Origin: a virus
Taxonomy: Duplodnaviria > Heunggongvirae > Uroviricota > Caudoviricetes
Length of the DNA: 45,042 nt
Virus record (IMG/VR): IMGVR_UViG_2563366951_000002
Location: 1 to 45,042 of that record
Reading direction: 5' to 3' (one strand)
Part shown: positions 8,565-43,686 of the stretch, piece by piece
How positions within the stretch are numbered: the first letter of the stretch is position 1
How the letters are laid out: each line of letters begins with the position of its first letter
Program-made: the position numbers and the translations under genes
The notes under the pieces: model-generated
Seen by the model: the letters and a program-made list of their open reading frames with translations, nothing else
What the model was told of the DNA's origin: nothing
Database searches by the model: none

Positions 8565-8623
8565 ATCTCACCCCTCATACAGTAGCTTACTGCCTAATTT
8601 CATTTTCTGGCGACCAACACAAG

Positions 8624-9007
8624 TCACCTCGCCGTCAGTTGTTTTGATTTCCGGTAGCCTGCCGCGTAAATGGCTACGTTTGGAAGACATACACCAGTTT
8701 CTGGTTGCTTATGTCCAAACTCATTCGCGTACACAATGGCCGCTCGCTCCAGATTGCGTCTGTATTCTTTCTGTTGCCAGATCACGTCCTGTGCCATGAA
8801 CTTAATTGGCTTAGCGTCTTCTATGCGCTCAGGCGTTTCGTGAGTACCTTTAGCCTGAATCTGCGCTCTGCTTAGAGTAGGGCGGTGTAATACTTCTGAA
8901 CTTATTGCTTCTTCGCGGGCCAGTACGCCGTTAGCTAATGCCTTTGCCTTTAAACGCTCACGACGACGAGAACGTGAATTGCCTTTGAACTGAGTTCTGC
9001 GTGTCAT
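8624..9007 (-). CDS. N: Antitermination protein N, P22/phage-21 type (127 aa)
   Basis: ATG at 9005-9007 with AGGAGG upstream; N-terminal arginine-rich motif (NSRSRRRERLKAKA); C-terminus ...YAAGYRKSKQLTAR resembles P22-type N as recalled; first gene downstream of pL and nutL. Confidence 0.7.
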   Translation of the reverse strand: MTRRTQFKGNSRSRRRERLKAKALANGVLAREEAISSEVLHRPTLSRAQIQAKGTHETPERIEDAKPIKFMAQDVIWQQKEYRRNLERAAIVYANEFGHKQPETGVCLPNVAIYAAGYRKSKQLTAR

Positions 9008-9172
9008 ATAGACCTCCTGATGAACTTTGGTGGTGTGGTAGGTGGGAGACCCATTTCGACCTGTTTCGGCCTACTTCAATTCGGCAATAGTCCCGCAGGC
9101 CTCGCCGCTTTACGTGCGACATATTCCCGTCCATGAACCCTTCACCACACCCCAAAGTTCACTTTGGTTATT

Positions 9173-9187
9173 GCGCTTTGTCAGCGC
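9173..9187 (-). promoter_or_regulatory. nutL boxB hairpin
   Basis: Minus-strand sequence GCGCTGACAAAGCGC: 5-bp stem with GACAA pentaloop, the P22-type boxB as recalled; lies in the N leader between pL and the N start. Confidence 0.7.
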
Positions 9188-9255
9188 CGTAGATTCATAT
9201 TCGAATCGTTGTATATTCACCGCCCTGGTGAGTAGTGCGTCCTGCTGATGGCTAA

Positions 9256-9284
9256 ATAGTACGATGTGTACTTTATTGAGTCAA
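9256..9284 (-). promoter_or_regulatory. pL promoter with overlapping operator (OL)
   Basis: Minus strand: TTGACT, 17-nt spacer, TACTAT; 15-bp near-palindrome AGTACACATCGTACT covers the spacer and -10. Confidence 0.6.
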
Positions 9285-9345
9285 TACAAAATGTTCTAAA
9301 TATGGTTGGTTTTTTATAACACTTTGTATTTTATTGATTTATATT

Positions 9346-9378
9346 TTGGAAAAAGAAAACCCGACGCTAAGGTCGGGT
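9346..9378 (-). terminator. Intrinsic terminator downstream of the repressor gene
   Basis: Stem ACCCGAC/GTCGGGT with 6-nt loop; on the minus strand followed by GTTTTCTTTTTCC; the plus strand also has a U-rich tail, so it may act bidirectionally. Confidence 0.6.
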
Positions 9379-9409
9379 TATTGTTGTGTGTTTTAGAGTG
9401 GTGATGCTG

Positions 9410-10069
9410 TTAACTAAATGTCTCTTCAGGCCACTGGCTGGCGATAACTTTCCCTACTACGGAACAGCTATCATTGCATGGGATCATTGGATATTGCGGG
9501 TTTAGTGGTTGTAGGAACACCTGACCGCTATCCCTGATCAGTTTCTTGAAGGTAAACTCCTCACCACCAAGTCTGGCTATGCAGAAATCACCTGGCTCAA
9601 CAGCCTGCTCAGGGTCAACGAGAATTAACATCCCGTCAGGAAAACTTGGCTTGGATCCTGTTGGTGCGGTCATGGAATTACCTTCAACTTCAAGCCAAAA
9701 CGCACAATCACTGGCTTTTTTGGTTGTGCTGACCCATCTCTCCGCATCACCTTTGGTAAAGGTTCTAAGCTCAGGCGAGAACATCCCGGCCTGAACATGA
9801 GAAAAAACAGGGTACTCATATTGTTTTTTTACGGGGGCAGATGAGTATTCGCCAACAGGTGAAAATGTACCGTCGTGGTTGAATGAGACGTTATCAATAC
9901 CAAGGTATTTAAACACCACACCAATCTCGTCAAGAGATGGATGACGAGATCCGCGCAACCAGTGACCAATTCCACCCTGCGTCATACCAAGCTCTTCAGC
10001 TAACTTCTCTTGAGTTATGCCGAGCTCTTTCATTCTGGATCTAGCCAGTTCATACCATTTCATTTTCAT
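9410..10069 (-). CDS. cI: CI-type prophage repressor (HTH domain plus S24/LexA-like peptidase domain, about 219 aa)
   Basis: Internal ATG at 10067-10069 with AAGGA upstream gives [37 protein letters not shown]... (HTH); C-terminal half has S24 self-cleavage domain character; divergent from cro; the track ORF extends to 10144. Confidence 0.8.
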
Positions 10070-10125
10070 ATCCTTATTATTACGCTCTGTACTAAAACCA
10101 TCCATGCACAAGATGTATTTTTTGT

Positions 10126-10154
10126 TTGCATTCCAAGAGTACATATCGTATTAT
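10126..10154 (+). promoter_or_regulatory. pR promoter with overlapping operator (OR)
   Basis: TTGCAT, 17-nt spacer, TATTAT; AGTACATATCGTATT overlaps the spacer and -10 and is near-identical to the pL operator. Confidence 0.6.
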
Positions 10155-10180
10155 TGTTTCATGGTTACTATGGAGGGCAT

Positions 10181-10396
10181 ATGAGCAACCTACGAAAATA
10201 TCGAGAGTCACTGAATATCTCTCAAACAACCCTTGCTAAGGCGGTTGGATGCACACAGGGGGCTATCGGACATTGGGAATCTGGTCGTCGCTTCCCAGAC
10301 CTTAAAACATGCCGTGCTCTTGTTGCGTGCCTAAACAAGTTAGGCGCAAAAGTCAGTCTTGATGACGTGTTCCCGCCGGAACACCAAGCCGCTTAA
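10181..10396 (+). CDS. cro: Cro-like HTH repressor (71 aa)
   Basis: ATG at 10181 with GGAGGG upstream; HTH segment ISQTTLAKAVGCTQGAIGHWESG; divergent from cI across the operator region. Confidence 0.75.
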   Translation: MSNLRKYRESLNISQTTLAKAVGCTQGAIGHWESGRRFPDLKTCRALVACLNKLGAKVSLDDVFPPEHQAA

Positions 10397-10406
10397 TAAG
10401 CGGATC

Positions 10407-10452
10407 CGCTATTTTCACAATGGACATTCGTCCTACGTCGCTGACAAAGCGA
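10407..10452 (+). promoter_or_regulatory. nutR (boxA-like element plus boxB hairpin)
   Basis: boxB TCGCTGACAAAGCGA at 10438-10452 has the same GACAA pentaloop as nutL; upstream CCGCTATTTTCACAA resembles boxA (CGCTCTT(T)A...ACAA). Confidence 0.55.
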
Positions 10453-10536
10453 GTCCCAATATATCTGACCAACTAAGGCCATATGCGTTTCCACGCATAC
10501 CTTTCAGCTAAATATTCACTATTGGAATCATAAGAA

Positions 10537-10833
10537 ATGGAACAAACAAGTTACAGCAAACTATCACAGCGCGACGTTGATCGCGCTGAAACTGATTTAC
10601 TCATCAACCTGTCAACGCTTACCCAGCGCGGTCTGGCAAAGATGATTGGCTGTCATGAATCGAAGATAAGCAGAACGGACTGGAGATTTATTGCTTCGGT
10701 CTTGTGTGCTTTCGGAATGGCATCAGACATCAGTCCGATTAGCAGGGCTTTTAAGTATGCGCTTGATGAAATCACAAAGAAAAAATCCCCGGCCGCCACC
10801 GAGGATTTTAAGCAAATTGATATGCAATTCTGA
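10537..10833 (+). CDS. cII: CII-like transcriptional activator (98 aa)
   Basis: C-terminus ...KKKSPAATEDFKQIDMQF resembles lambda CII (...KKRPAATERSEQIQMEF); HTH-like segment; position between cro and the replication genes. Confidence 0.75.
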   Translation: MEQTSYSKLSQRDVDRAETDLLINLSTLTQRGLAKMIGCHESKISRTDWRFIASVLCAFGMASDISPISRAFKYALDEITKKKSPAATEDFKQIDMQF

Positions 10834-11076: not shown

Positions 11077-11904
11077 ATGGGGTATGTCTCTATACACCGC
11101 CAGTTTATGGACAGCAGGCTCTATAAGGACTCTCAGGCAGTACATCTTTGGCTTCACTTAATCCTCAAGGCTAATCACGAATCTACTGTCGTCAATACGG
11201 ATATCGGTCCGATAACTGTTGATCGCGGTCAGATGATAACTGGACGCCCGTCGCTGGTCAGAGAAACATTCATCCCCGACAACAAAGTTCGGAGCTTATT
11301 ACGGACTTTTGAGTCGAAAGGGATGCTTAATATTTGCTCGATGGGGAAGAAATTTAGCCTGTTTACAATCGTTAAATATGACGATTTTCAGGCAAAAAAT
11401 TGTCCAACGGTTGTCCAACGGTTGTCCATCGCAAACACCAGTAATGGCGCGGCTCTCAGCGGAGATTGTCCAACGGTTGTCCAACGGTTGTCCATAAACA
11501 ATAATATAAATAATATCTCTAATACTGACGTATTAGAGAGTACCGCAGCAGACAAAAAGTCTGACAAGAAAAAACCTTCCGTTAGCTGTCAGGATGTTGT
11601 CGATGCTTACCACGAAATCCTTCCTGAAGCGCCAAAAATCCGCGCACTGAATGACAAGCGTAAAAACCAGATCCGAACGTTCTGGCGCAAAGCCGGAGTG
11701 ATAACCCGCCAGCTCGACGGGCATGGGTTCACGATGCAGGACTGGAGAAATTATTTGAGCTACGTAGGCGAAAATTGCCGATGGATGTTCGAAGAGCGCC
11801 CAAACCATCAGCGCGGAACCGTCTGGCACAAAAAGGGATTTGATTTCCTGCTTAACGATAATACCTACCTGAAAGTTCGTGAGGGTGAACACGATGACCG
11901 ATAA
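11077..11904 (+). CDS. Replication initiator, O-like, with origin iterons inside the gene
   Basis: ATG at 11077 with AGGAGG 8 nt upstream (track ORF starts at 11014); iteron repeats and an AT-rich block lie within the coding sequence as in lambda O; stop overlaps the helicase start. Confidence 0.7.
   Translation: MGYVSIHRQFMDSRLYKDSQAVHLWLHLILKANHESTVVNTDIGPITVDRGQMITGRPSLVRETFIPDNKVRSLLRTFESKGMLNICSMGKKFSLFTIVKYDDFQAKNCPTVVQRLSIANTSNGAALSGDCPTVVQRLSINNNINNISNTDVLESTAADKKSDKKKPSVSCQDVVDAYHEILPEAPKIRALNDKRKNQIRTFWRKAGVITRQLDGHGFTMQDWRNYLSYVGENCRWMFEERPNHQRGTVWHKKGFDFLLNDNTYLKVREGEHDDR
11400..11496. repeat. Origin iterons: two clusters of three 11-bp direct repeats
   Basis: TTGTCCAACGG at 11400, 11411, 11422 (third copy degenerate) and again at 11466, 11477, 11488; followed by AT-rich aacaataatataaataatatctctaatact. 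Confidence 0.75.
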
Positions 11905-14359
11905 TTTTTATGCGCCGCCCCATAGCATCGAGGCAGAGCAGGCGGTGATTGGTGGATTGCTTCTGGATGATGACAGCAGTGAGCGCGTCCAGAAAGTTCT
12001 GGCGATGCTGAAGCCTGATTCATTTTACTGCCGACCACACAAAATCCTTTTCGAAGAAATAACCAGAATGCACCGTGAGCAAAAGCCAGTAGATGGCCTG
12101 ACGCTTTTCGATGAACTGGAGCGTAAATCGTTAACGGCGTCTGTTGGCGGTTTTGCTTATATCACTGAGATCGCAAAGAACACGCCAAGCGCCGCAAACA
12201 TCGTTGCCTATGCAATGCAGGTTCGCGAAACCGCAATGGAACGCTACGCCATCAACCGCATGACTGAAGCGACGGAATTGCTCTATTCCCGCAACGGAAT
12301 GACTGCGACGCAGAAGTACGAAGCTATTCAGGCGATTTTCACGCAACTGACAGACCATGCAAAAACCGGATCGCGTCGCGGCCTTCGCTCATTTGGTGAG
12401 GTTATGGAAGACTGGGTTAGCGACCTTGAGAAACGATTTGACCCATCAGGCGAACAACGGGGAATGAGCACAGGGATCCCATCGCTGGACAGGATGCTGT
12501 CACCGAAAGGTCTGGTGAAAGGCTCTCTGTTTGTCATTGGCGCTCGCCCTAAGATGGGGAAAGCGCAACCGCTTAATTCACGCATTTTGCTTGCTGATGG
12601 TTCATGGACAACATTTCGTGACGTATGTGTTGGAGATTCCCTAGCATCAGTGGATGGACAACCATCATTCGTGTCTGGAGTTTTTCCTCAAGGGGAGCGA
12701 GATATTTACCGAGTTACGTTCTCTGACGGAAGAACCGTTGATTGCGCGGATGATCATTTGTGGGAGATTCATAGTAACCGTATTACCGGTGGCGTTGATG
12801 TTGTAGACACCTGCCGCCTACGGGACATGATGGAATGCGTTCGCTATCAAAGCCGCATTCATGTTCCTGGTATTAGCGGTGACTTCGGATTGCCTGTTGA
12901 TTTAGGGATTAGCCCATGGCTGTTAGGTGCGTTACTTGGCGATGGAAATCTTGCAGGTACGCCACGAATCAGCATGACGGAACCATACATCATTGAGCGA
13001 GTAAGATCTGAAGTGGGTGACGATATTGAAGTCAGGCATGTTTCTGGCTGCGATTACTCCCTATCTCACAAGTTTAGCCGCAAATTATCTCTTACGCGGG
13101 TTATGCAACGGCTTGGTATCTACGGCCGGATGTCAGAGATTAAAATTATCCCGGATATTATTTTTTCTGCTGATAAGCAAACTCGTATTGATGTTCTATG
13201 CGGATTACTTGAAACCGATGGTTGGGTTGAAGGAAATAATGCCCTGCGCTTTAGCTCGGCAAGCAAGTTCCTGTCAGATGGTGTAAAGCGGCTGGTGCAT
13301 TCTCTTGGTGGCGTGTGTCGTATGACAACCAAACAGGAGCCGAAATTCAGTTATAAGGGAGAAATGCGCAAAGGTATGGATGCCCATATTTGCGCAATCA
13401 GGTTGCCTGATGAGGTTCTATCACACATAAAATCTCCACGCCTGAAGCAAAAATTCACTGCAAAACGCATCAAAACAAGTGCGCCTGTTATCACGTCGGT
13501 TGAGTATATTGGACGTGAAGAGTGCATTTGCATCATGGTATCCCACGAGAGACATTTGTATGCAACTGACGGATACATTCTAACTCACAACACCACGCTA
13601 TACAGCCAGATGGCAATCAACTGCGCAGTGCATGAGAAAAAGCCCGCTCTGATGTTCAGCCTTGAAATGCCAGGTGACCAGATACTGGAAAAACTGGTGG
13701 GACAGAAGTCAGGTGTTAACCCGAATATTTTTTACCTTCCGGCGACAAATGACGCTGATGACAGCTATCAGGGTGATTACGATGGTGACTTCAACAGGGC
13801 GATCGAAACAGCCAATCGCTTGAGTGAAATCGACCTGCTTTACATCGACGACACGCCGGGATTATCTCTGGCTCAAATCGTCAGCGAAAGCCGTCGAATC
13901 AAGCGAGAAAAAGGATGTGTTGGCATGATTCTGGTCGATTACCTGACACTAATGACTGCTGAGAAGGCCGATCGCAACGACCTTGCTTACGGCATGATCA
14001 CCAAAGGATTGAAGAACCTTGCCAAAGAGCTTGATTGCGTTGTTGTGCTTCTGACACAGCTTAACCGCGCACTGGAAAGCCGAACCAATAAACGCCCATT
14101 ACCAAGTGACTCACGAGATACAGGGCAGATTGAACAGGATTGCGATTATTGGGTTGGGATCCATCGGGAAGGTGCTTTTGATGACAGCGTTCCTCCTGGT
14201 GAAACCGAACTAATCCTTCGTCTCAATCGTCATGGCAATACCGGCACGGTGTATTGCATTCAGGCAAATGGCGCTATTTATGACACAGACCAACAGTCTG
14301 CTGAAATGCGCCGACGTGAACGCGAGGAACCGCAGTCCAAGAAGAAAGGAGGATTCTGA
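11894..14359 (+). CDS. DnaB-family replicative helicase interrupted by an in-frame intein
   Basis: ATG at 11894 (track ORF starts at GTG 11879); N-terminal DnaB-like domain; Walker A GARPKMGK, then 343-aa insert, then TTLYSQMAIN...SLEMP...LVDYL...SDSRDTGQIEQDCD helicase motifs. Confidence 0.8.
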   Translation: MTDNFYAPPHSIEAEQAVIGGLLLDDDSSERVQKVLAMLKPDSFYCRPHKILFEEITRMHREQKPVDGLTLFDELERKSLTASVGGFAYITEIAKNTPSAANIVAYAMQVRETAMERYAINRMTEATELLYSRNGMTATQKYEAIQAIFTQLTDHAKTGSRRGLRSFGEVMEDWVSDLEKRFDPSGEQRGMSTGIPSLDRMLSPKGLVKGSLFVIGARPKMGKAQPLNSRILLADGSWTTFRDVCVGDSLASVDGQPSFVSGVFPQGERDIYRVTFSDGRTVDCADDHLWEIHSNRITGGVDVVDTCRLRDMMECVRYQSRIHVPGISGDFGLPVDLGISPWLLGALLGDGNLAGTPRISMTEPYIIERVRSEVGDDIEVRHVSGCDYSLSHKFSRKLSLTRVMQRLGIYGRMSEIKIIPDIIFSADKQTRIDVLCGLLETDGWVEGNNALRFSSASKFLSDGVKRLVHSLGGVCRMTTKQEPKFSYKGEMRKGMDAHICAIRLPDEVLSHIKSPRLKQKFTAKRIKTSAPVITSVEYIGREECICIMVSHERHLYATDGYILTHNTTLYSQMAINCAVHEKKPALMFSLEMPGDQILEKLVGQKSGVNPNIFYLPATNDADDSYQGDYDGDFNRAIETANRLSEIDLLYIDDTPGLSLAQIVSESRRIKREKGCVGMILVDYLTLMTAEKADRNDLAYGMITKGLKNLAKELDCVVVLLTQLNRALESRTNKRPLPSDSRDTGQIEQDCDYWVGIHREGAFDDSVPPGETELILRLNRHGNTGTVYCIQANGAIYDTDQQSAEMRRREREEPQSKKKGGF
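12563..13591 (+). mobile_element. Intein (343 aa) with LAGLIDADG homing-endonuclease domain, inserted in the helicase P-loop
   Basis: Insert begins AQPLNSRILLADG and ends YILTHN, followed by Thr; two LAGLIDADG motifs (LLGALLGDGNL, LCGLLETDGW); removing it restores GARPKMGK-TTLYSQ. Confidence 0.75.
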
Positions 14360-16196: not shown

Positions 16197-16365
16197 CCCA
16201 TCCCAATCCCTTCAATACCAGAAAGAAAGCGTCGAGCGAGCTTTAACGTGCGCTAATTGCGGTCAAAAGCTGCATGTGCTGGAAGTTCACGTGTGCTCCG
16301 ATTGCTGCGCAGAACTGATGAGCGATCCGAATAGCTCAATGTACGAGGAAGAAGACGATGAGTGA
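16189..16365 (+). CDS. ninF: NinF-like protein (58 aa)
   Basis: Internal ATG at 16189; [44 protein letters not shown]... resembles lambda NinF as recalled. Confidence 0.65.
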   Translation: MLSPSQSLQYQKESVERALTCANCGQKLHVLEVHVCSDCCAELMSDPNSSMYEEEDDE

Positions 16366-16867
16366 TGTTAAAGAAAAAGATATCCCCGGCTTTGAGGGTA
16401 TATATAAAGTAACTGAAAATGGAGACATCATTTCATGCCGTAAATCAAAAAAATTATCTCATGGCATTAAACCAGGAGGATATGCATTTGTCGGTCTGTA
16501 TCCAGGTGGCGGGAAAAGACCATCATATAAAATGGTTCACAGAATTGTTGCAGAAGTATTTATTGATAACCCAGATGGCAAACCGGAAGTTAATCACAAG
16601 GATGGAAATAAACTTAATAATAAAGTTGAAAATCTTGAGTGGGTAACGCGAACAGAAAATGCGAAACATGGATTTGATTCCGGATTGCTTGTTCATGGGT
16701 TTAATCATCACTTCTGCAAACTAACGCCAGAACAAGTGAAATCAATATATAAATCAAAAGGCAAATACAGAGATATAGCCAAAGAATTTGGTGTTTGTGC
16801 GCAGACAGTGTGCAACATAAAAAACAAATCAGCGTACCGACGTTTTTTGGAGGGGATTGATGTTTAG
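16358..16867 (+). CDS. Free-standing HNH-family endonuclease (169 aa)
   Basis: ORF from track; HNH-like core (EVNHKDGNKLNNKVENLEWVTRTENAKHG) with N-terminal GIYKVTENGDI segment; region is visibly AT-rich relative to flanks. Confidence 0.7.
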   Translation: MSDVKEKDIPGFEGIYKVTENGDIISCRKSKKLSHGIKPGGYAFVGLYPGGGKRPSYKMVHRIVAEVFIDNPDGKPEVNHKDGNKLNNKVENLEWVTRTENAKHGFDSGLLVHGFNHHFCKLTPEQVKSIYKSKGKYRDIAKEFGVCAQTVCNIKNKSAYRRFLEGIDV

Positions 16868-17135
16868 AAGCAAAAAATGGCTTCAGACAGTCAGGGATAT
16901 TGAATTTTGCGTTCTTTGCGGAAGATACGGAGTTCAGGCCGCTCACAGAAATGAAGGGAAGGGGGTTGGGATTAAAGTAGATGATTGCCTTACTGCTGCG
17001 CTATGTGTTGATTGTCATTCAAGAATTGATAATGGGAGAGATATGAGCAGGGAAGAGCGAAGGGCTGAAATGGATCGGGCCATTGTGCTTACCCTTAAAA
17101 AATTGGTTAACAATGGGAGGGTGTTTGTCCAATGA
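16860..17135 (+). CDS. Small Cys/His-rich nin-region protein (DUF1364/YbcO-like?)
   Basis: ATG at 16860 (track ORF starts at TTG 16857); CxxC ... C..C.H pattern (CVLCGRY, CVDCHSR). Confidence 0.5.
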   Translation: MFRSKKWLQTVRDIEFCVLCGRYGVQAAHRNEGKGVGIKVDDCLTAALCVDCHSRIDNGRDMSREERRAEMDRAIVLTLKKLVNNGRVFVQ

Positions 17136-17494
17136 ACGAATATCAGTTTGTGCTTCCGTACCCGCCGTCGGTGAACACCTACTGGCGAAGAAGGGAAAGC
17201 CAATACTACATCAGCGATAAAGGCCAGAAATACCGAAAAGACGTTCAGCAAATCATTCGCCAACTCAAGTTAGACATTTTCACCAAATCACGACTCCGCA
17301 TCAAAGTCATCGCAGACGTTCCAGATTCCCGCCGCCGCGACCTCGACAACATCCTGAAAGGTTTACTCGACTCCCTTATCCACGCCGGATTTGCGGAAGA
17401 CGACGAGCAATTCGATGACATTCGCGTAATTCGTGGTGTGAAAGTACCAGGCGGACGGCTTGGAATAAAAATCACCGAACTGGAGAACGTATGA
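17132..17494 (+). CDS. rusA: RusA Holliday-junction resolvase (120 aa)
   Basis: MNEYQFVLPYPPSVNTYWRRR...DSRRRDLDNILKGLLDSLIHAGF resembles E. coli RusA (...[25 protein letters not shown]). Confidence 0.8.
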   Translation: MNEYQFVLPYPPSVNTYWRRRESQYYISDKGQKYRKDVQQIIRQLKLDIFTKSRLRIKVIADVPDSRRRDLDNILKGLLDSLIHAGFAEDDEQFDDIRVIRGVKVPGGRLGIKITELENV

Positions 17495-17679
17495 ACGCCA
17501 CAATTCAAACGATACCAGAGCTTCTTATCCAGACACGAGGCAATCAGATCGAAGTGGCAAGGATGCTTTCCTGCGCAAGAGGAACAGTGCTCAAGTACAA
17601 CCGAGACAGTAAAGGCGAGCGTCACGTAATAGTTAACGGCGTCCTGATGGTCAAACAGGGAAAAAGGGGAAGGCCATGA
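17491..17679 (+). CDS. ninH: NinH-like protein (62 aa)
   Basis: ...GNQIEVARMLSCARGTVLKYNRD... resembles lambda NinH HTH region as recalled. Confidence 0.6.
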   Translation: MNATIQTIPELLIQTRGNQIEVARMLSCARGTVLKYNRDSKGERHVIVNGVLMVKQGKRGRP

Positions 17680-18299
17680 GACTCGAAAGCGTAGCTAAAT
17701 TTCATTCGCCAAAAAGCCCGATGATGAGCGACTCACCACGGGCCACGGCTTCTGACTCTCTTTCCGGTACTGATGTGATGGCTGCTATGGGGATGGCACA
17801 ATCACAGGCCGGATTCGGGATGGCTGCATTTTGCGGTAAGCACGAACTCAGCCAGAACGACAAACAAAAGGCTATCAACTATCTGATGAAATTTGCACAC
17901 AAGGTATCGGGGAAATACCGTGGCGTGGCAAAGCTTGAAGGAAATACTAAGGCAAAGGTACTGCAAGTGCTCGCAACATTCGCTTATGCGGATTATTGCC
18001 GTAGTGCCGCGACGCCGGGGGCAAGATGCAGAGATTGCCACGGTACAGGCCGTGCGGTTGATATTGCCAAAACAGAGCTGTGGGGGAGAGTTGTCGAGAA
18101 AGAGTGCGGAAGATGCAAAGGCGTCGGCTATTCAAGGATGCCAGCAAGCGCAGCATATCGCGCTGTGACGATGCTAATCCCAAACCTTACCCAACCCACC
18201 TGGTCACGCACTGTTAAGCCGCTGTATGACGCTCTGGTGGTGCAATGCCACAAAGAAGAGTCAATCGCAGACAACATTTTGAATGCGGTCACACGTTAG
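17676..18299 (+). CDS. Q: Late-gene antitermination protein Q, lambda type (207 aa)
   Basis: MRLESVAKFHSPKSPMMSDSPRATASDS...; recognised as lambda Q; followed by a lambda-like pR' promoter. Confidence 0.9.
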   Translation: MRLESVAKFHSPKSPMMSDSPRATASDSLSGTDVMAAMGMAQSQAGFGMAAFCGKHELSQNDKQKAINYLMKFAHKVSGKYRGVAKLEGNTKAKVLQVLATFAYADYCRSAATPGARCRDCHGTGRAVDIAKTELWGRVVEKECGRCKGVGYSRMPASAAYRAVTMLIPNLTQPTWSRTVKPLYDALVVQCHKEESIADNILNAVTR

Positions 18300-18341
18300 C
18301 AGCATGATTGCCACGGATGGCAACATATTAACGGCATGATA

Positions 18342-18370
18342 TTGACTTATTGAATAAAATTGGGTAAATT
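18342..18370 (+). promoter_or_regulatory. Late promoter pR' (with qut region)
   Basis: TTGACTTATTGAATAAAATTGGGTAAATT: -35 TTGACT, 17-nt spacer, -10 TAAATT, matching lambda pR' as recalled. Confidence 0.75.
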
Positions 18371-18405
18371 TGACTCAACGATGGATAAATGCACTCGTTA
18401 AATAA

Positions 18406-18437
18406 AGCCCTGAGTTAATAGCTCGGGGCTTTTTTGT
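18406..18437 (+). terminator. tR'-like intrinsic terminator (end of a short 6S-like late leader RNA)
   Basis: GC-rich stem (18407-18414 pairs with 18422-18429) followed by TTTTTTG; downstream tatctgcacaacag matches the lambda tR' flank. Confidence 0.65.
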
Positions 18438-18690
18438 ATCTGCACAACAGATAATTGCATTGGGGTGACCGGTTAATCCCGTTACGCTAACCGAAACAGG
18501 CGCAGTGCAATTATCGTTGTGGTGAATGCGCAGGCTGATGCGCTAACTTATCAGCTAGATGGTGAGGTAAAGGCTCACCATGGCGACGACGGGTAGTTCA
18601 TTTACATGCCGGAAAACACAGCACCGGTCACCACACACCAAATACCTACCAGGACCATAAGAGCAAAAGCTCAACGCACTACCCTCTATT

Positions 18691-42642: not shown

Positions 42643-43686
42643 TTACCCTGTAAATATGCTCATGATTATCTTTGAAGCGCGTTTACTTTCAAGGTGGCTA
42701 GATATCATTTTCACTAATTTTACTTGTGAATACACAACTAATAATGCAAGTGTATAAGTTACAATAAATGTTATCACAAAGTTTAAACTGAGTTTGTGGC
42801 ACATTAATATGAATAAAATGTGCCACAGATAAAGCCATATTGAGTTTTCTGAAGTAAATTTGACAAGTGTCCATGCAACAGTATTTTTTAAGCGAGCCAC
42901 AATGGCATCAGCATATAAATAAACCAGTGTGCTAACGAATACAGCATAGGATAAATAGTAAATCCCCGGGGGGTATTTATCAATTTGTGTTGGGATAAAG
43001 GAATTATCTACAAAGTAAAAATCAATAACTAAGAAAAAGAACAGGGACGCAGAACAAATAATCAACAGTAAAATTTGCTTTTTGTCTAAACTCATTAGTT
43101 TATAGCCGATTAAAAATACAAACATATAAGGTATAGTGTTTGCAATATAGGAGCCGATGAGAACCATTTTGTTCATTTCGTCAAGCTCTTTATAGAAACT
43201 TTTGAATTGACTATTAATAATTACGGTGAGAGCAAAAAAAGATAGTAGATACAACATTCTTGCATTGAGTAATTTCTTTGGTAAGAATATCGCAATTGTC
43301 GAAATTATGAAAAAAAGCCTTATAACCCAAACATATCCCAATCCGCTAGATAACGTAAATGAGGTAATTATATGCCCTTGTGGATAAGTGAAGTTTTTAA
43401 TATTAAATGCTAAGGCAAGACATTCATTTATTACGAAGAAAAAACCAAAGAAAATCCATGTAGGAAGAACTAATCGACGAAAGCGCGAGGCGATATAACC
43501 TAGTTTGTCTTTATGTCTTTCCTCTGTCACATAAAATGACATTCCCATGACCATAAACATTAAAGGTACATCGAAGTTACGCAGTTGAGCTAGCCATAAA
43601 GGAGGCTGGACATGGGCTAGAATGATTAGAGAAAGCCCGAGAAATCTTAAAAAATCTATTTTATCAATACGCATGACTTCGTCCAT
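42643..43686 (-). CDS. Acyltransferase-3 family integral membrane protein (O-antigen acetylase-like, 347 aa)
   Basis: ORF from track; about ten hydrophobic segments; N-terminal FLRFLGLSLIILAHV typical of acyltransferase_3; very AT-rich codon usage unlike neighbours; opposite strand to the tail genes, next to attR. Confidence 0.7.
   Translation of the reverse strand: MDEVMRIDKIDFLRFLGLSLIILAHVQPPLWLAQLRNFDVPLMFMVMGMSFYVTEERHKDKLGYIASRFRRLVLPTWIFFGFFFVINECLALAFNIKNFTYPQGHIITSFTLSSGLGYVWVIRLFFIISTIAIFLPKKLLNARMLYLLSFFALTVIINSQFKSFYKELDEMNKMVLIGSYIANTIPYMFVFLIGYKLMSLDKKQILLLIICSASLFFFLVIDFYFVDNSFIPTQIDKYPPGIYYLSYAVFVSTLVYLYADAIVARLKNTVAWTLVKFTSENSIWLYLWHILFILMCHKLSLNFVITFIVTYTLALLVVYSQVKLVKMISSHLESKRASKIIMSIFTG

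Follow-up and report, generated by a model that had tools for sequence, protein, structure and literature searches.

The window (the whole stretch of 45,042 nt of viral DNA that was analysed) carries an N gene, two nut sites, and an immunity region in the canonical order N, nutL, pL, cI, pR, cro, nutR, and cII, together with a more distant gene for the late antiterminator Q. The coordinates of these elements are given in Table 1; cII occupies positions 10537 to 10833, and the nutR boxB is placed between it and cro. The boxB elements with a GACAA loop, which the initial annotation had described for both nut sites, are present at the two edges of the interval from 9173 to 10452, on the minus and plus strands, respectively, and the N gene is outside this interval. 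The arginine-rich motif (ARM) that had been assigned to residues 9 to 24 of N was likewise confirmed: of the 16 residues from Gly9 to Leu24 (GNSRSRRRERLKAKAL), 6 are Arg and 2 are Lys, and the protein matches the N_peptide family of Pfam. A Shine-Dalgarno sequence, AGGAGG, is located 6 nt upstream of the N ATG.

Table 1. Features of the early control region and of the Q locus in the window
Feature	Position	Strand	Description
N gene, early transcription antiterminator	8624-9007	-	127 aa; Pfam PF25694 N_peptide, E = 2e-15; ARM at approximately residues 7-25
N leader RNA	9008-9172	-	Predicted long-range stem between the sequences immediately 3' of boxB and immediately 5' of the N ribosome-binding site
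nutL boxB	9173-9187	-	GCGCUGACAAAGCGC; 5-bp stem and GACAA pentaloop
nutL upstream part	9188-9232	-	Spacer hairpin GAUUC-GAAUAU-GAAUC (9192-9207); before it, degenerate sequence at the boxA position and small hairpin CACC-AGGGC-GGUG
pL-like promoter	9256-9284	-	TTGACT, 17-nt spacer, TACTAT (promoter scan); overlaps operator-like GTACACATCGTAC
cI repressor	9410-10063	-	HTH_3 and Peptidase_S24; start codon M26 or M28 of a 244-aa ORF
cro	10181-10396	+	HTH_3; 71 aa
nutR boxA	10415-10423	+	CGCUAUUUU; identical to H-19B boxA
nutR spacer	10424-10437	+	Hairpin GGAC-AUUC-GUCC (predicted fold); identical to H-19B spacer
nutR boxB	10438-10452	+	UCGCUGACAAAGCGA; 5-bp stem and GACAA pentaloop
tR1 region	10453-10536	+	Hairpin AUGCGU-UUCC-ACGCAU; by identity with H-19B, putative Rho-dependent terminator zone that overlaps nutR and that N must override
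Q, late antiterminator, lambda/P22 type 1	17676-18299	+	Pfam PF03589, E = 9e-58
pR'/qut, then tR'-type terminator	18300-18440	+	First ~85 nt match lambda exactly and P22 almost exactly

Structure of the nut sites and early leaders

Both boxB hairpins are correctly oriented and follow their respective early promoters; the nutL boxB is about 75 nt downstream of the pL-like promoter. The predicted fold of the nutL boxB has a free energy of -8.5 kcal/mol (z -3.5), and that of the nutR boxB has a free energy of -6.4 kcal/mol (z -2.6). In a 68-nt segment of the nutL region, the spacer hairpin and boxB fold together with a z value of -3.6, and the predicted fold of nutR also consists of a boxB hairpin and a spacer hairpin. 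The sequence at the boxA position of nutL, CGGTGAATA, agrees poorly with the boxA consensus, which makes the loading of NusB/S10 at nutL doubtful. This is in line with the boxA of H-19B, which Neely and Friedman reportedly found to be dispensable in 2000; the same work is said to assign a "reducer" role to the spacer dyad. The window shares the conserved 5' end of the pL transcript, CAUCAGCAGGACGCAC, with lambda, P22, and H-19B. The N leader segment that follows the nutL boxB has a minimum free energy of -87.8 kcal/mol (z -3.5), and its long stem, which is retained in the centroid structure, is presumably the analogue of the RNase III hairpin in the N leader of lambda.

Relationship to H-19B, 933W, and HK97

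The N protein is identical to that of 933W (127/127 residues) and nearly identical to those of HK97 (125/127) and H-19B (124/127). The nutR boxA (CGCTATTTT), spacer hairpin, boxB (TCGCTGACAAAGCGA), and tR1 hairpin match those of H-19B at every base across approximately 100 nt, and the tR1 stretch follows the H-19B nutR/tR1 up to approximately position 10506. The nutL site is that of H-19B and 933W; together with the N leader (9008 to 9252), it matches 933W at 242 of 245 positions. The nutL boxB, GCGCTGACAAAGCGC, is identical to the nutL boxB of P22, H-19B, HK97, and 933W, and the nutR boxB is identical to those of H-19B and HK97, whereas the boxA of HK97 nutR (CGCTCTTTT) differs from the boxA found here and in H-19B. 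The layout also corresponds to that of the H-19B type, in that nutR overlaps tR1 in the cro-cII interval and nutL lies between pL and N. On the other hand, the pL-cI interval of the window is free of genes, whereas that of HK97 contains gp48/49 and that of 933W contains stk and others, and the late and virion genes of the window bear no relation to those of H-19B, 933W, and HK97.

Because of the identity of N and the match of the nut sites to H-19B, spacer hairpins included, the correct family is the H-19B/933W/HK97 type, which is treated as a prototype apart from P22 in the epsilon34 genome paper (PMC2629481, Table 1). No sequence evidence in the window contradicts this assignment, and the locus very probably serves a lambdoid prophage as an N/nut module of this type for early antitermination. 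Judged by its sequence, the module is the early antitermination switch that has already been studied, and is already known, in lambdoid phages of the Shiga-toxin type (H-19B/933W/HK97); the window itself offers nothing novel. The value of the comparison is in the annotation: N, nutL, nutR, pL, tR1, and Q/qut are assigned for a lambdoid prophage, and the early control is shown by its sequence to be of the well-studied H-19B/933W type that numerous E. coli prophages share, Shiga-toxin phages among them.

Between the nut sites, the immunity region (cI, cro, and operators) is of a type other than that of H-19B, 933W, and HK97, and it is approximately 94% identical to those of phages 2851, 1717, and Nil2, as is cI taken by itself (~94%). 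The 2851-type cro gives way to the H-19B-type nutR at a mosaic junction inside the nutR boxA. Among the sampled viral contigs that have this immunity region, an N gene was found in 30 of 36 and was always of the VT2-Sakai type with a GAAA boxB; the remaining 6 contigs also carry GAAA but lack an N gene at the locus.

The N/nut system of H-19B is said to have been studied by Neely and Friedman in 1998 and 2000. Read-through by H-19B N reportedly requires NusA and neither NusB/S10 nor boxA (the 2000 study), and this reported independence of NusB/S10 and boxA is a reduced host-factor need compared with that of lambda N. The H-19B N/NUT system has also been used in published antitermination experiments of the R. 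Sen laboratory (e.g., PMC3526286 and PMC4499122). The nutR RNA of H-19B contains two hairpins (PMC3526286), and its spacer and boxB, but not boxA, are protected by N together with NusA/NusG; the nutR/tR1 segment is a Rho-dependent terminator, and H-19B N overcomes it in vivo and in vitro (PMC3526286; PMC4499122).

From publications on H-19B, P22, and lambda, one would expect the module in the window to act likewise through RNA binding and antitermination in a NusA-dependent way. After induction, RNA polymerase would start at pL and pR and transcribe nutL and nutR, and the boxB hairpin would form in the nascent NUT RNA, with a GNRA-like GACAA loop from which the C is looped out as in the boxB of P22. 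The N-terminal arginine-rich helix of N (approximately residues 7 to 25) would then bind this hairpin. N and NusA, which would contact the spacer, and the C-terminal region of N would convert the polymerase into a termination-resistant elongation complex that could read through the Rho-dependent tR1 zone and the downstream terminators. Such read-through would permit the delayed-early expression of cII, the replication genes, the nin genes, and finally Q, and Q of the lambda/P22 type would turn on the late genes at qut/pR'.

Specificity of N and the pairing with Q

The window and lambda have the same architecture, gene order, and boxA-spacer-boxB layout, with tR1 after nutR and a long N-leader hairpin, and the leader of the pL transcript, AUCAGCAGGACGCAC, is conserved between them. 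However, the boxB loops of lambda are GAAGA (nutL) and GAAAA (nutR) instead of GACAA, and N of the window, which is approximately 30% identical to lambda N, has an ARM without Trp, whereas the ARM of lambda is the Trp18-containing MDAQTRRRERRAEKQAQW. Lambda-type specificity was rejected on the basis of the loop sequence and the ARM. A phi21-type specificity was set aside on the same grounds and presumably does not apply.

There is a negligible probability that the GACAA hairpins form a repeat by chance or represent generic structured RNA (e.g., terminators or RNase sites) unconnected to N. Short GC-rich hairpins are common, and a scan of the whole window at the Rfam gathering thresholds matched no family; Rfam appears to have no model of nut or boxB. 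However, the 13-mer common to both boxB elements, CGCTGACAAAGCG, occurs exactly twice in the 45-kb window, where 0.01 copies are expected, and two or more copies appeared in 0 of 100 dinucleotide-preserving shuffles. The nutL and nutR boxB are the only perfect hairpins in the window that combine a stem of at least 4 bp with a GACAA loop, neither is followed by a T-run, and accordingly neither was scored as a terminator. A chance repeat or terminator was rejected on the 13-mer count against the shuffles and the lack of T-runs. Moreover, both copies have canonical nut positions and orientations and are base for base the experimentally defined nut sites of H-19B, and the loop type co-varies perfectly with the type of N in 88 viral loci among the matches listed. 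It is also very improbable, though less so than a chance repeat, that the window is a novel chimera in which early control of P22 lineage and late control of lambda lineage form an unusual regulatory wiring. N/nut is P22-like, and Q/qut is lambda-identical: Q has 206 of 207 residues in common with lambda Q and 200 of 207 with P22 gp23, the qut segment is of the lambda type over ~85 identical nt, and the near-identical Q with its matching pR'/qut belongs to the lambda/P22 type-1 class. The lambda-type Q of the initial annotation is therefore correct, whereas the contrast that it drew between P22-specific early and lambda-specific late antitermination is empty, since P22 gp23 is itself 201/207 identical to lambda Q, has a nearly identical pR'/qut, and substitutes for lambda Q in experiments (PMC8022706; PMC2629481, Table 1, note 6). 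The novel P22/lambda chimera was rejected on this identity of approximately 97%. The pairing of N and Q is ordinary because P22 itself pairs a GACAA-type N with a lambda-type Q, and in epsilon34 an HK97-like N (72% identity to HK97 N) occurs alongside a Q that is 98% identical to lambda Q and an identical qut (PMC2629481). Of 5426 complete E. coli genomes, 1891 contain parts of the N-to-cII region (8600 to 10560). The lambda-type Q is thus a case of routine mosaicism that brings no new regulatory logic. The terminator after qut (AAAGCCCTGAG..CTCGGGGCTTTTT) belongs to the P22 type rather than the lambda type, and the window follows P22 downstream of qut.

Overall, N is 39% identical to P22 gp24, which it exceeds in length by 27 residues in its central part. 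In the ARM, FKGNSRSRRRERLKAKALA aligns with FAGNAKTRRHERRRKLAIE of gp24 (approximately residues 11 to 30) with 8 of 19 identical residues and conservative changes, and 16 of the C-terminal 20 residues, which form the RNAP-interaction tail, are identical. The GACAA loop is common to the window and P22, stands on a 5-bp stem at both sites of the window, and is part of a nutL boxB that is identical to that of P22 at 15 of 15 positions, whereas the nutR boxB of P22 (CCGC-C-GACAA-C-GCGG) has a different stem. The nut sites of P22 have a consensus boxA (GCTCTTTA) without a spacer hairpin, whereas those of the window have spacer hairpins and a different boxA. The P22-type assignment of the initial annotation consequently stands for the boxB elements with their GACAA loop and for the homology of the ARM and the C-terminus, but not for N as a whole, which at 39% identity to gp24 and 100% to 933W N falls in the H-19B/933W/HK97 family. 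The NMR structure of the P22 N peptide in complex with boxB (1A4T) is said to have been reported by Cai et al. in 1998. In 1A4T, the C of the GACAA loop is looped out and is in contact with His7 and Arg11 of the peptide (PMC12550061). The equivalents of these residues in N of the window are Arg and Lys by hand alignment, and for this reason the same specificity as that of P22 is suggested rather than demonstrated. Searches of PDB sequences by phmmer with full-length N and with the ARM alone, at E values up to 10, retrieved neither the P22 nor the lambda N peptides, including the 21-residue P22 peptide; because short low-complexity peptides are beyond the reach of phmmer and no P22 N peptide was retrieved, the structural analogy is taken from the hand alignment and the published contacts (PMC12550061).

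A strictly P22-specific N that is fully interchangeable with P22 gp24, so that early antitermination would be P22-specific, is possible, with a probability that we place somewhat below even. It is favoured by the identical nutL boxB, the GACAA loop at both sites, the homologous ARM (FxGN[SA][RK][ST]RR[RH]ER), and the similar C-terminus, and also by the gp24 proteins of phage L and P22, which are interchangeable despite their differing C-termini, so that the N-terminal part appears to set the specificity (PMC8022706). The low identity of N overall and within the ARM, the replacement of both residues that contact the looped-out C, and the spacer hairpins and boxA unlike those of P22 argue against it. 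In addition, HK97/H-19B is counted as a separate prototype, and Casjens and colleagues predict the same specificity at an identity of at least 92% to the prototype (PMC2629481, Table 1), compared with 39% to gp24 here. The openly accessible literature that was searched contained no statement of H-19B or HK97 N as P22-like or cross-functional and no cross-complementation data.

N type and boxB loop among related loci

N proteins of the VT2-Sakai, epsilon34 (g341c), and POCJ13 type are homologous to N of the window, with 35 to 70% identity. Their nutR scaffold is nearly the same, consisting of GGACATTCGTCCTACG and a TCGCT...AGCGA stem, and tR1 is the same. In place of the pentaloop, however, their boxB has a genuine GNRA tetraloop (GAAA or GCAA), equivalent to GACAA without the C, and the ARM is F[KN]G[TS][AS][AS][SG]RRR[AE][RH]RA, compared with FKGNSRSRRRERLKA in the window. 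We tentatively propose, as a reading that we consider rather unlikely, that N of the H-19B/933W type (GACAA) and N of the VT2-Sakai/epsilon34 type (GAAA or GCAA) may be mutually exclusive natural ARM-boxB classes on near-identical nut scaffolds, with RNAs that differ only by the looped-out C; N and both nut sites would be co-selected across recombination, and P22 gp24 and H-19B N would be cross-reactive despite their 39% identity. If true and undescribed, this would be a natural experiment on how an arginine-rich helix tells a GNRA tetraloop from a GNRA-like pentaloop. The co-variation of the ARM and the boxB loop could guide experiments on RNA-peptide specificity, and it may be familiar to specialists already.

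The loci sampled from IMG/VR comprised 88 viral loci that share the nutR scaffold, among at least 120 loci listed, and they are not independent of one another. Among the matches listed, a GACAA nutR always occurs with N of the H-19B/933W type (44/44 loci), and a GAAA nutR always occurs with N of the VT2-Sakai/epsilon34 type (44/44 loci). The pairing between N type and loop holds within each of at least four cro classes in which both loops are represented.

Immunity region and boxB hairpins

The gene order N-nutL-pL-cI-pR-cro-nutR-cII is that of a canonical lambdoid immunity region. Together with the remaining content, which includes a lambda-type integrase, RecT, and a myovirus-like virion module, it identifies the window as a lambdoid prophage or phage.

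Features of the immunity region and the antitermination genes
Feature	Position	Strand	Sequence or basis
N	8624-9007	minus	127 aa; Pfam N_peptide, E = 2e-15
nutL boxB	9173-9187	minus	GCGCTGACAAAGCGC
pL-like promoter (TTGACT-17-TACTAT)	9284-9256	minus	promoter scan
Terminator closing cI transcript	9379-9358	minus	terminator scan
cI	9410 to about 10063	minus	HTH_3 + Peptidase_S24
pR-like promoter	10125-10154	plus	promoter scan
cro	10181-10396	plus	domain match
nutR boxA	10415-10423	plus	CGCTATTTT
nutR boxB	10438-10452	plus	TCGCTGACAAAGCGA
cII	10537-10833	plus	Phage_CII
Replication genes, nin region, RusA	3' of cII		ORF and domain calls
Q	17676-18299	plus	Pfam Antiterm, E = 9e-58

Both boxBs are predicted to form a 5-bp stem with a GACAA pentaloop, with folding energies of -8.5 kcal/mol (z -3.5) for nutL and -6.4 kcal/mol (z -2.6) for nutR. 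The 13-mer CGCTGACAAAGCG, common to both, has exactly two copies in the 45-kb window, where dinucleotide shuffles predict 0.01. A looser 11-mer search of the window allowing one mismatch returned 4 matches versus 1.1 expected, which is not significant alone; the argument is therefore based on the exact 13-mer match and its positions. There is no T-run after either boxB, and the terminator scan did not report either of them as an intrinsic terminator. The exact repeat, the predicted hairpins, and the canonical positions bear out the GACAA-loop boxBs that the initial annotation placed at both nut sites.

Relation of N and the nut sites to H-19B, 933W, HK97, and P22

The N protein is identical to that of 933W (127/127) and nearly so to those of H-19B (124/127) and HK97 (125/127). 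nutR consists of boxA, a spacer hairpin (GGAC-ATTC-GTCC), boxB, and the tR1 hairpin (ATGCGT-TTCC-ACGCAT), and each base from boxA through the tR1 hairpin (~100 nt) is the same as in H-19B nutR/tR1. nutL is likewise identical to that of H-19B; it comprises a conserved pL leader, a small hairpin, a spacer hairpin (GATTC-GAATAT-GAATC), and boxB. Together with the entire N leader, nutL matches 933W at 242 of 245 nt. Judged by these alignments, the element is the already characterised and already known H-19B/933W/HK97 N-nut module. H-19B nutR/tR1, which has served as a template in experiments, has two hairpins, and Rho-dependent termination there is overcome by H-19B N in vivo and in vitro; the spacer and boxB, not boxA, are protected by N plus NusA/NusG (PMC3526286; PMC4499122).

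The boxA at nutL of the window is poor (CGGTGAATA). Neely and Friedman (in Mol Microbiol, 2000) reportedly found that H-19B N requires NusA but not NusB or S10, that H-19B boxA is dispensable, and that the spacer dyad acts as a "reducer", bringing the flanking elements together; the poor nutL boxA fits such behaviour. In the N leader RNA (9008-9172, minus strand), a long-range stem is predicted (z -3.5), in which the stretch directly after boxB (GUGAACUUUGGGGUGUGGUG) pairs just 5' of the N Shine-Dalgarno. This stem is similar to a hairpin in the lambda N leader that RNase III processes, and it may link occupancy of nutL to translation of N.

The nutL boxB is also identical to that of P22 (15/15). 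Since P22 nutR boxB (CCGC-C-GACAA-C-GCGG) and P22 nutL boxB are alike only in the GACAA loop, it is this loop that characterises the class. In P22 nutR boxB (locus L004, 3455-3471) the pentaloop is closed by a C·C juxtaposition rather than a Watson-Crick pair, as it is in SPN9CC nutL boxB (GCTC-C-GTCAA-C-GAGC; locus L008); these boxBs are a second stem variant inside the GACAA-type class. The P22 N-peptide/boxB structure (1A4T) shows a GNRA-like fold with the C of GACAA looped out and in contact with peptide residues His7 and Arg11 (PMC12550061), whose counterparts in the window N are Arg16 and Lys20 by hand alignment. Alignment with P22 N (gp24) gave 39% identity overall, with 16 of 20 C-terminal residues identical and a gapless arginine-rich motif (ARM; FKGNSRSRRRERLKAKALA versus FAGNAKTRRHERRRKLAIE) in which 8 of 19 residues are identical and the changes are mostly conservative; the lambda-type features sought in the window system (a GAAAA or GAAGA loop; Trp18) are absent. 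By analogy, the identical nutL boxB, the GACAA loop, and the homologous ARM argue that the system should work like P22 N/boxB, and its specificity probably overlaps that of P22. The P22-type early system that had been proposed is partly right, in that the loop is of the P22 type and the ARM is homologous. The system is nonetheless of the H-19B/933W/HK97 family, a prototype that papers on phage genomics keep apart from P22 (PMC2629481 Table 1), and "P22-specific" early antitermination is unproven.

Loop type and N type among related phages

N homologues of VT2-Sakai, g341c/epsilon34, and POCJ13 (35-70% identity) adjoin a nutR scaffold almost identical to that of the window (10397-10452), in which boxB is TCGCT-GAAA-AGCGA, the same hairpin without the looped-out C. 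Their nutL boxBs have GAAA or GCAA tetraloops, and their ARMs follow the pattern F[KN]G[TS][AS][AS][SG]RRR[AE][RH]RA. Scanning IMG/VR with the pattern GGACATTCGTCCTACGTCGCTGA(N0-1)AARGCGA returned at least 120 loci; the 88 among the matches listed that also hold an N gene were compared, although these loci are far from independent. N was of the 933W/H-19B type at all 44 listed loci with a GACAA nutR (nutL: 40 GACAA, 3 C-GTCAA-C, 1 unresolved) and of the VT2-Sakai/epsilon34 type at all 44 with a GAAA nutR (nutL: 41 GAAA, 3 GCAA). At least four cro 3'-end classes occur with both loops, N matching the loop every time among the matches listed, so the association is not merely clonal linkage. It is natural co-variation of ARM and boxB, with the nutL loop following. 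Selection for matched pairs would be expected to leave such a pattern, which supports specific reading of the GACAA loop by the ARM of the window N.

Among the matches listed, window-like cI-cro regions carry a GAAA nutR loop in 36/36 sampled viral loci, and all 30 of these that hold an N gene have the VT2-Sakai type; the window differs in its GACAA loop and 933W N. The switch from 2851-type sequence (an immunity region like that of phage 2851) to H-19B-type sequence lies inside nutR boxA, between CCGCT and ATTTT (10410-10425). Upstream of it, the 3' end of cro agrees with the 2851/VT2-type immunity module found elsewhere with a GAAA boxB. Of 5426 complete E. coli genomes, 1891 contain parts of the N-to-cII region (8600-10560), and 4 have the exact arrangement (at least 80% query coverage), including strain MB46 at 99.2% identity.

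Late antitermination and other window content

The lambda-type Q of the initial annotation is present (206/207 identical to lambda Q), and the ~85 nt of pR'/qut are the same as in lambda and nearly so in P22. The proposed contrast between P22-specific early and lambda-specific late antitermination is nevertheless not unusual. The window Q is 200/207 identical to P22 Q (gp23), lambda Q and gp23 agree at 201/207, and the two substitute for each other (PMC8022706; PMC2629481 Table 1 note 6). Epsilon34 already combines an HK97-like N (72% to HK97 N) with a lambda-like Q (98% identical, with identical qut) (PMC2629481). Such a combination is thus carried by P22 itself and is routine lambdoid mosaicism. 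3' of the ~85 nt, the window keeps to the terminator sequence of P22, not that of lambda; the short late leader and terminator (18385-18440, plus strand; AAAGCCCTGAG...CTCGGGGCTTTTT) agree with P22 rather than with lambda 6S/tR'.

An 826-aa DnaB-type replicative helicase ORF (11879-14359, plus strand) has its DnaB_C domain split by a ~350-aa insert with a weak LAGLIDADG_3 match, and so looks like an intein-containing phage helicase. In the nin region, directly upstream of RusA (17132-17494), a free-standing 169-aa ORF with HNH_3 and NUMOD4 (16358-16867, plus strand) is probably a homing endonuclease. The myovirus-like virion module (21300-42600, plus strand), with a DUF3383 sheath-like protein, an SLT-domain tape measure, and baseplate J, shares 94.9% identity with Citrobacter phage Omnitron and is also related to Salmonella phage SEN34; the window thus combines a lambdoid early region with a late region for a contractile tail. 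At the right end, an Acyl_transf_3 ORF on the reverse strand (42643-43686) may be an O-antigen acetylase moron.
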